Positions 48,828-50,040 of a stretch of 64,000 nucleotides of DNA are shown one piece after another. The DNA comes from Escherichia phage EC.P1, in sequence record PQ657772.1; one strand, 5' to 3'. The notes beneath the pieces are model-generated. The model made no database searches. It was given only the letters and a program-made list of their open reading frames with translations, and was not told the origin of the DNA. Numbering within the stretch: position 1 is the first letter of the stretch; every line of letters starts with the position of its first letter. Both the position numbers and the translations under genes were made by a program.

Positions 48828-49072
48828 TGTGCATCCTTTGGAATAGTGTTAAGGCGTGTACGGTTTACAATCTTCCTGCACATGAGATTAAGATCTTGCC
48901 CATGACGCATCTCATGGCAAGCATACAATGTACCATCATAGTTAAGTTTAGTCAAATTCTGGCGAATGAACTCTGCATCAGCCTCCTGAACTTTAGGTGC
49001 ACAGCCACAGAGAGTAATGGACACAAATATTGTTAATGTAATGAATATATTTTTCATGATATTTTTTCTCAT
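48824..49072 (-). CDS. lipoprotein
   Basis: 82 aa; signal peptide with lipobox LCGC. Confidence 0.5.
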   Translation of the reverse strand: MRKNIMKNIFITLTIFVSITLCGCAPKVQEADAEFIRQNLTKLNYDGTLYACHEMRHGQDLNLMCRKIVNRTRLNTIPKDAQ

Positions 49073-50040
49073 TTTGGGCTATAACCACTTTTAATTTTAG
49101 AAATTACTTTCTTCTCGAAGAACTTACGTGCTTCTTCAATAGTTTTGAATTCTTCACCATCTGTAGTACTGGTTTTACCAATAGCACCATACTCAATAAT
49201 TACTTCACACACTGGAGCATTCAATTCAATATTATAGAATTTGTTCGAAGAACCGTGAACATATTCCAAATGTACATTATCAGGAATGTTCTGCACATAA
49301 TCATAGTTCTTGAAGATAATATCAATCATATTTTCTTCACCGCGATCAGGAAATAGTTCAGTATTATTCAGTACTAAACGCTGTGCAGCACGGAACATAT
49401 CAAAATATTGTTCACCTTTTTTCAGTTCTTTTGTATCAGAACAGAAATGACCATAGTATTCTACATAATCATTCCAAGGATAAATTCCTTCATCAGCAGT
49501 TTCAAAAGCGTAAGTTTCATCTTGTGGAACTTTAAAACCACGAGTTTTTGGATGGGAAATTAAGCACAGTGAAATATTATGACCGATATCTGAATCATCA
49601 GTAATACTACCACCAACCATATGAACAACATTTTTAATACGTTCAAAATCTACATCTTCAATTTCATGATACATTAAATGTTCTTCAATATTACTTACTA
49701 GTAATGAATTACCATTTCCTGCATCGAATTCAAAAATGAAAAGTTCTACACAATCTTCTTCTTTCATTTCAATAGTATCACTGAGTTTAATATACTCATT
49801 TTTTACTTGTTCAATATTTTCATGAGAACCAAAACTATAACGAGAACTGATATAACTACTACCATCCAACCATCCCATATCCCAAGGTTCTTCTGACATG
49901 TATTCGGTGCTATAGAAATCAGTCAAATCATCTCTCTGAGTACAAACCGTAAGAGAACGAACATTATTAAGACCTTGAACTTCAAGATTCAGTACTGTAG
50001 TGTTGCCGATTTTTTGTTCAGAAATAATTTTAGTTTTCAT
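49069..50040 (-). CDS. WGR-domain protein (C-terminal WGR-like domain, unknown N-terminal domain)
   Basis: 323 aa; C-terminus KFYNIEL...EYGAIGKTSTTDGEEFKTIEEARKFFEKKVISKIKSGY fits WGR pattern. Confidence 0.5.
   Translation of the reverse strand: MKTKIISEQKIGNTTVLNLEVQGLNNVRSLTVCTQRDDLTDFYSTEYMSEEPWDMGWLDGSSYISSRYSFGSHENIEQVKNEYIKLSDTIEMKEEDCVELFIFEFDAGNGNSLLVSNIEEHLMYHEIEDVDFERIKNVVHMVGGSITDDSDIGHNISLCLISHPKTRGFKVPQDETYAFETADEGIYPWNDYVEYYGHFCSDTKELKKGEQYFDMFRAAQRLVLNNTELFPDRGEENMIDIIFKNYDYVQNIPDNVHLEYVHGSSNKFYNIELNAPVCEVIIEYGAIGKTSTTDGEEFKTIEEARKFFEKKVISKIKSGYSPK

Follow-up and report, generated by a model that had tools for sequence, protein, structure and literature searches.

What does a WGR domain do in a phage? 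A good understanding of WGR domains is confined to those of eukaryotic PARPs, and next to nothing is known of what they do in bacteria and phages. The question is raised by an open reading frame (ORF) at 49069..50040, on the minus strand, of a 64,000-nucleotide stretch of Escherichia phage EC.P1 (PQ657772.1; the whole 64-kb stretch that was analysed is called the window below). The source of the window is an Asteriusvirus jumbo coliphage, a giant phage with E. coli as its host. The protein encoded by the ORF carries a WGR domain at its C-terminus, preceded by a long acidic N-terminal domain (N-domain). Our studies have shown that these two domains evolve at very different rates, that natural deletions have left the WGR domain on its own, and that the gene resides on a segment exchanged between phages. 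Based on these observations, we propose, with a probability of roughly 0.35, that the protein is a dispensable accessory factor in which a conserved WGR binder, whose ligand is likely the nucleic-acid backbone, is combined with a modulatory N-domain serving as a sensor or adaptor.

The gene and its relatives

The ORF is present exactly as a preliminary description of the window had given it; it is complete, begins with ATG and encodes 323 amino acids followed by a stop codon. It is a real gene, since its 27 full-length homologues (37-98% identity) have a common start (M1, K2) and a length of 314-331 amino acids, the ratio of nonsynonymous to synonymous substitution rates (dN/dS) against the counterpart in phage G17 is 0.125, and its stop codon shares the sequence ATGA with the start codon of the following gene. 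Over the surrounding 3.5 kb, identity to two Asteriusvirus phages of Escherichia with genomes of 354-375 kb, Ecwhy_1 and fEgEco12, amounts to 99.9%, and the protein itself is 100% identical to QAY00573.1 (Ecwhy_1) and XBS49310.1 (fEgEco12 g228). GenBank labels the fEgEco12 protein a ‘WGR domain-containing protein’, and other near relatives are likewise called WGR proteins. Iyer et al. (2021) listed QAY00573.1 among the putative transcription factors of jumbo phages, its DNA-binding domain being a MolR-like WGR. The WGR call for this exact accession is already known from both GenBank and the literature; our literature searches on the window protein found no experimental work. A second copy of either domain is not present within the 64-kb window.

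The WGR domain

The C-terminal WGR domain named in the preliminary description is borne out by a Pfam match to PF05406 covering residues 256-322 (49075..49275, minus strand) at 41.6 bits (gathering cutoff 22; E=1.3e-10), with which PDB profile searches and the predicted fold agree. All 29 full-length family members found carry PF05406. When a profile of the family was run against PDB sequences, the WGR of 2ra8 was matched at E=1.8e-6 to 5.5e-8, and the WGR domains of PARP3 and PARP2 were also recovered. An AlphaFold2 (AF2) model of the whole protein, built from a 28-sequence alignment, reached a predicted local distance difference test (pLDDT) score of 90.9 and a predicted template modelling (pTM) score of 0.90. 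In the model the domain adopts the expected WGR fold, an antiparallel sheet followed by a C-terminal helix, and the pTM of 0.90 for a two-domain protein suggests that the domains would be held in a fixed arrangement. The literal Trp-Gly-Arg motif is not kept. Its place is taken by Y284-G285-A286, the third position being A, G or P family-wide and Trp occurring in one member only. The literal motif is not obligatory for WGR membership, because 2ra8 itself has Y-G-K.

In order to find equivalents of functionally characterized residues, we aligned the phage domain to the PARP2 WGR with HMMER and drew on structural and mutagenesis data for the PARP2-DNA complex (PMC6294510). PARP2 residues K130, Y132, K179 and K183, which contact the DNA backbone (PMC6294510), align with phage K267, Y269, K311 and K315, and these four are invariant or at least 90% conserved across the phage family. 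The aromatic residue that stacks on ribose in PARP2, W151 (PMC6294510), aligns with Y284. By residue identity, the backbone-contacting set of PARP2 is present in the phage WGR, and a role as a generic phosphate-backbone binder is plausible.

An orphan acidic N-domain

The N-domain comprises residues 1-252 (49285..50040, minus strand) as delimited on AF2 models, with a net charge of -27 and an isoelectric point (pI) of 4.4. The preliminary description had assigned these ~250 amino acids to no family, and our results concur: searches of Pfam, PHROG, NCBIfam and PADLOC with the whole protein returned only WGR or noise and no N-domain family, the best PADLOC-DB matches being ThsB (E=0.028) and WGR_XIII (E=0.044), neither above noise. 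Candidates at lower stringency were rejected. A Pfam search at E<=10 with 16 N-domains gave SidE_mART (E=0.056), DUF5503, Spond_N and Phage_TTP_13, each matched by one member only, and the top PDB sequence-profile match, Chlamydia CdsD (4qq0; E=0.19), was judged to be due to chance. An exhaustive phmmer search of 1.84 billion representatives with the N-domain retrieved five clusters, all of them N-domain plus WGR, and a profile search of 5.8 billion proteins retrieved ten matches, all with WGR, which added one cluster. Since every match combines the two domains, the N-domain is, as far as such searches reach, an orphan found solely in fusion with WGR. This architecture is represented by ~30 protein clusters in Rak2-like jumbo phages.

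Structure prediction, the check proposed for this region in the preliminary description, yielded a confident AF2 model of the N-domain alone (pLDDT 87.2, pTM 0.88), and the domain was confidently modelled within the full protein too. Foldseek searches of the model against BFVD gave nothing at E<=1e-3. Based on the alignment and on DSSP applied to the AF2 models, the chain would begin with a three-stranded beta-meander (residues 1-34; 49939..50040, minus strand) holding the invariant N26 and the near-invariant T34. This is followed by a beta-alpha-beta-beta-alpha-beta core that is ferredoxin-like by topology, with one additional helix (residues 64-162; 49555..49851, minus strand); the core holds a DAGNG hairpin, N117 and a GGSxxDDxD motif (G144-D151). 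An all-helical subdomain (residues 175-250; 49291..49518, minus strand) then runs directly into the WGR. Within these limits the modelled elements are the meander at 2-34, the beta-alpha-beta-beta-alpha-beta unit at 66-144, a helix at 152-162 and five helices at 175-250.

Eleven residues (N26, D54, G60, Y63, G71, G110, N117, G144, D148, D149 and P164) are invariant even when members of 24-25% identity are included, and six of these are polar (N26, D54, Y63, N117, D148 and D149). Ferredoxin topology would place Y63, N117 and D148/D149 together at one end of adjacent strands, where they may form a pocket. Across the family the net charge of the N-domain ranges from -24 to -35 (median -28; pI ~4.2), so it is unlikely to bind nucleic acid.

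Uneven evolution and natural loss of the N-domain

Comparison of the two domains showed that the WGR is the constrained module and the N-domain the faster-evolving one: in 356 of 378 pairs the WGR is the more identical part (medians 58% versus 39%), and substitution rates differ accordingly. In the extreme pair, P0013 and P0017, the WGR is 100% identical and the N-domain 55%. Between two relatives, metagenomic contig L003 and Erwinia phage Hallingskeid (L005), dN is 0.011 and dS 0.20 in the WGR part, versus a dN of 0.37 and a dS of 1.12 (dN/dS 0.33) in the N-domain part.

The N-domain has also been deleted in nature. In L012, 709 bp are absent relative to L003, leaving at the unchanged syntenic locus a WGR-only ORF of 79 amino acids (P0030), whose start Met corresponds to about residue 241 and whose dN/dS against the L003 WGR is ~0.11. 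In L013, a WGR-only ORF of 82 amino acids (P0032) is preceded by the small ‘MFALQ’ ORF also found ahead of the WGR gene in the window. Two independent losses of the N-domain would be the parsimonious reading, since the full-length proteins nearest to P0030 and P0032 belong to different subclades (89% identity to P0016 and 63% to P0004). A further apparent case, the 97-amino-acid P0031, proved to be a full-length gene cut off by the end of its contig and was set aside.

These observations bear on the possibility, raised in the preliminary description, that the N-terminal region holds a catalytic domain. In its fuller form, the N-domain would be a new metal-dependent enzyme acting on nucleic-acid ends or nucleotides, to which the WGR would deliver it, much as WGR domains bring the catalytic domains of PARPs and some bacterial ATP-dependent ligases to their substrates. 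The six polar residues that stay invariant down to 24% identity are in keeping with this, the GGSxxDDxD motif suggests metal binding, Y63, N117 and D148/D149 are expected at one strand edge from the topology, and characterized WGR architectures do include enzymes, namely PARPs and WGR-ligases (PMC7470946). However, none of the residues invariant in the N-domain is His, Lys, Arg, Cys, Ser or Glu, no enzyme fold was found for the domain, and its position relative to WGR is opposite to the domain order of PARPs and ligases. Moreover, at the protein level it evolves ~30 times faster than the WGR, and at least two deletions, apparently two separate losses, have removed it and left the WGR in place. 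These findings do not support a catalytic N-domain, and we regard an enzyme of this kind as unlikely.

An exchangeable cassette

The WGR gene is optional within Asteriusvirus. Among Escherichia phage records, the surrounding region is present in 31 and the WGR protein in 16; the protein is encoded in none of the eight Salmonella records and not in the one Klebsiella record. The gene lies on an exchangeable cassette of ~1.1 kb (49007..50162), which is replaced in phage WPEC3 by 231 bp, despite flanks that are 99.3-99.9% identical to those of the window. The WPEC3 replacement carries an unrelated ORF of 59 amino acids with a signal peptide and a lipobox-like motif (L002 2562-2741). Against phage G17, positions 49066-50166 are 97.4% identical, versus only 86.6% and 87.2% for the flanks, and the left edge (50163-50166) is common to both comparisons. 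It follows from the WPEC3 replacement, and from a G17 segment more identical than its flanks, that diverged lineages have recently exchanged this segment and that other lineages have lost it.

The best sigma70-like promoter match of the region lies at 50131..50159 on the minus strand (TTGACA, a 17-nt spacer and a TG-extended GATAAT; 11/12), just within the cassette edge and ~90 nt 5′ of the WGR start codon. Judged from this consensus, the gene is probably expressed early by the host polymerase. Another promoter-like site (10/12) is located inside the WGR-coding part (49259-49231, minus strand). Promoter-like sites overall are at chance level, with 16 found and 13.1 expected. A terminator-like hairpin at 48274..48296 (minus strand) would end a transcript from the cassette promoter, and a terminator is annotated at the equivalent position in G17.

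Small genes adjoin the WGR gene on both sides. An ORF of 34 amino acids (50050..50154, minus strand; g227 in fEgEco12) accompanies it in the cassette, has been retained solely where there is a WGR cassette, and recurs on its own in L013. Distant relatives encode a protein of 283-289 amino acids whose C-terminus is homologous to this ORF. Together with an ORF of 215 amino acids (50172-50819, minus strand), the 34-amino-acid ORF matches this single 283-289-amino-acid protein of L003 and L005, so the corresponding gene looks split or truncated in Asteriusvirus. Downstream, a lipoprotein-like gene encoding 82 amino acids with a signal peptide (48824..49072, minus strand) has the start that overlaps the WGR stop, and its N-terminus falls within the exchanged cassette. 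This lipoprotein-like gene always adjoins the WGR gene but changes sides: in contrast to its downstream position in the window, its homologue is located directly upstream in L003 (7804-8001) and L005 (6804-7001), and it is upstream in L012 too. In the G17 lineage (L011 2571-2951), an additional gene of 126 amino acids, G17_00438, directly follows and overlaps the WGR stop; it is not present in the window phage, and its GenBank note cites a similar protein in slurp01.

Proposed role of the protein

Taken together, these analyses lead us to favour an accessory binder with a modulatory N-domain. The gene would be a dispensable accessory gene of Rak2-like jumbo phages (Asteriusvirus and related), a status suggested by the protein being found in 16 of the records versus 31 for the region, by the cassette swaps, and by the best sigma70-like site lying at the cassette edge. 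Host RNA polymerase would transcribe it early, starting within the cassette itself. The C-terminal WGR would be the working core and bind a phosphate-rich ligand stoichiometrically. The best candidate for this ligand is the nucleic-acid backbone, which would be held by K267, Y269, K311 and K315 together with the aromatic Y284. Sensing strand breaks in the manner of a PARP would not be the role of this domain. In keeping with a nucleic-acid-binding WGR, Iyer et al. (2021) had independently placed this very protein among WGR DNA-binding factors. The 252-residue N-domain, which we picture as rigidly attached, acidic and fast-evolving with a small Asp/Asn/Tyr pocket, would modulate or redirect the WGR and would not carry the primary activity; it could respond to a ligand or metal as a sensor, or serve as the adaptor to a host or phage partner that varies.

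Several points weigh against this proposal. For a protein that binds nucleic acid, an approximately neutral WGR (family median net charge 0) and a pI of ~4.4-4.6 for the whole protein are unusual. Since the conserved Lys and Tyr residues are part of the signature of WGR domains in general, they may be structural. The dS is lower in the WGR-coding part (49075-49284) than in the N-domain part or the neighbouring genes; between L012 and L003 it is 0.50 versus 1.2-1.9. This suggests recombination or constraint at the nucleotide level, either of which would inflate the apparent conservation of the protein. The WGR-only ORFs may be recent remnants that have not yet decayed, and the promoter is a consensus match only. 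To our knowledge, no binding experiment has been reported for this or any other bacterial or phage WGR. Finally, contacts with the break are missing. PARP2 R153 contacts the break, and an R153A mutant loses stable DNA-break binding (PMC6294510); its position is occupied by A286 in the phage protein and by A, G or P in the family. The phage chain also ends before the equivalent of Y201, a 5′-phosphate contact in PARP2 (PMC6294510). The position of a third PARP2 break contact, N127 (PMC6294510), is S264. With none of these three contacts kept and no adjacent ADP-ribosyltransferase (ART) domain, the phage WGR is not plausible as a PARP-type break sensor on the aligned residues.

Genome neighbourhood and a possible role in conflict

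Homologues at the syntenic position occur in L003 (43% identity) and Hallingskeid (39-40%). In both, the WGR gene is flanked by a SIR2 / Nudt16-like NUDIX / cREC / PIN-PhoH block and a dCMP-deaminase / NrdD block, and both blocks are also present in the window. The first includes SIR2 (54892-55644; the same as QAY00582.1, which Iyer et al. cite), Nudt16-like NUDIX (54344-54895), cREC_REC (54014-54334) and PIN-PhoH (52214-53653), all on the minus strand. Two genes of the cytidine/dCMP-deaminase family are located at 47276-47644 and 57978-58454 (minus strand), the latter also matching MafB19-like deaminases. In L003 an Acb1-like gene is immediately upstream of SIR2; the two window ORFs scanned upstream of SIR2 (55877-56539 and 56820-57428) have no Acb1 Pfam match. 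The most distant branch of the family, P0028 and P0029 (25% identity), resides on AT-rich phage-like contigs with other neighbours, and the neighbours of distant homologues on L008 are not N-domain paralogues. In the AT-rich contigs (26-27% GC) that carry the distant homologue P0029 (L008, L009 and L010), 6 of 22 ORFs of at least 100 amino acids end in K-[N/S/K]-R-[L/I]; C-termini seen there are KNRL, KNRI, KSRL and QKRL.

Another possibility is that the protein is directed at another protein, as an inhibitor or decoy and perhaps as a DNA mimic or counter-defence factor; its acidic N-domain would bind and block a host DNA-binding or defence protein, and its WGR would be a protein-interaction or decoy module and not a binder of nucleic acid. 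SIR2, Nudt16-like NUDIX and cREC genes lie 4-6 kb off on the same strand, with Acb1 in L003, and SIR2, Nudix and cRec domains are regarded by Iyer et al. as conflict systems that centre on NAD+ and nucleotides. A net charge of -24 to -35 over ~250 residues, the fast N-domain evolution (dN/dS 0.33), the probable early promoter, and presence/absence polymorphism with cassette exchange among near-identical phages would all fit. However, proximity is a weak argument in a genome of ~670 genes, PADLOC matches stay at noise level, and similarity to known anti-defence proteins was not found. The WGR-only variants would, moreover, be inactive if the N-domain were the inhibitor. On balance, such an inhibitor seems to us improbable.

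Regulatory interpretation and significance

The transcription factor proposed by Iyer et al. (2021) on the basis of domain content would be a one-component, sequence-specific regulator, with the WGR as output and the N-domain as an ACT-/ferredoxin-like sensor of a small molecule. The architecture of sensor plus binding domain fits, as would the putative conserved polar pocket. However, no WGR is known to bind DNA in a sequence-specific manner, the protein is very acidic with a neutral WGR, and the MolR architecture is absent, the WGR being C-terminal and no other Pfam domain present. In addition, the gene is missing in about half of the close relatives with no visible compensation, which would not be expected of a regulator of core genes. 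We consider this role decidedly unlikely. Least probable of all is an undescribed effector in an NAD+/ADP-ribose- or DNA-end-centred arms race, encoded by an exchangeable early-gene cassette at 4-6 kb from the SIR2, NUDIX and cREC genes. In such an effector, a WGR recognizing nucleic acid or an ADP-ribose-type ligand would work together with an N-domain of a new fold that binds a ligand or metal and is possibly catalytic.

At present this is one further uncharacterized jumbo-phage accessory gene. Nevertheless, the orphan N-domain and its restriction to a WGR architecture in Rak2-like jumbo phages had not been described previously, and neither had the unequal evolution of the two domains, the deletions found in nature and the exchange of the cassette. 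The family defines an orphan domain restricted to these phages. It also offers a compact, well-modelled phage WGR together with natural controls, namely full-length proteins, WGR-only proteins and cassette-minus phages with flanks more than 99% identical, and these controls could help to find what a WGR outside PARPs binds.

Comparison with known WGR proteins

The phage protein has its WGR domain in common with PARP1, PARP2 and PARP3 (PF05406; PDB 4dqy, 6f5b and 2eoc). In contrast to the PARPs, it lacks the ART catalytic domain, the helical regulatory domain and the zinc fingers, and its WGR is C-terminal. The phage WGR is neutral, not basic, the motif Arg is replaced by Ala, Gly or Pro, and Y201 and N127 have no equivalent.

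The uncharacterized Bacteroides fragilis protein Q64V53 (PDB 2ra8) carries its WGR at residues 6-67, that is, at the N-terminus of a 362-residue chain, unlike the C-terminal WGR of the phage protein. We take the 2ra8 protein to consist of WGR plus leucine-rich repeats, and no part of it matches the phage N-domain. MolR-like proteins exceed 1000 amino acids and combine an N-terminal WGR with large helical-repeat regions; the role of MolR as a transcription factor rests on old genetics. E. coli MolR and the MolR-like family COG3831, the family used by Iyer et al. (2021) and in the G17 GenBank note, share the WGR with the phage protein. In contrast to MolR, the latter has its WGR at the C-terminus and no large repeat region or further Pfam domain was detected in it.

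Stand-alone WGR proteins are also known. Campylobacter jejuni CJ488_0932 is a WGR mini-protein of 64 amino acids listed as a putative regulator (PMC8285248), and the WGR-only P0030 (79 amino acids) and P0032 (82 amino acids) are likewise stand-alone WGR proteins. The window protein differs from these mini-proteins in its extra 252-residue domain. In this respect it resembles the bacterial ATP-dependent DNA ligases with WGR (PMC7470946), in which WGR is likewise joined to a second functional domain, although their nucleotidyltransferase and OB domains are not present in the phage protein. By profile and fold, the phage protein is a member of the WGR family whose architecture is neither that of the PARPs nor that of MolR.
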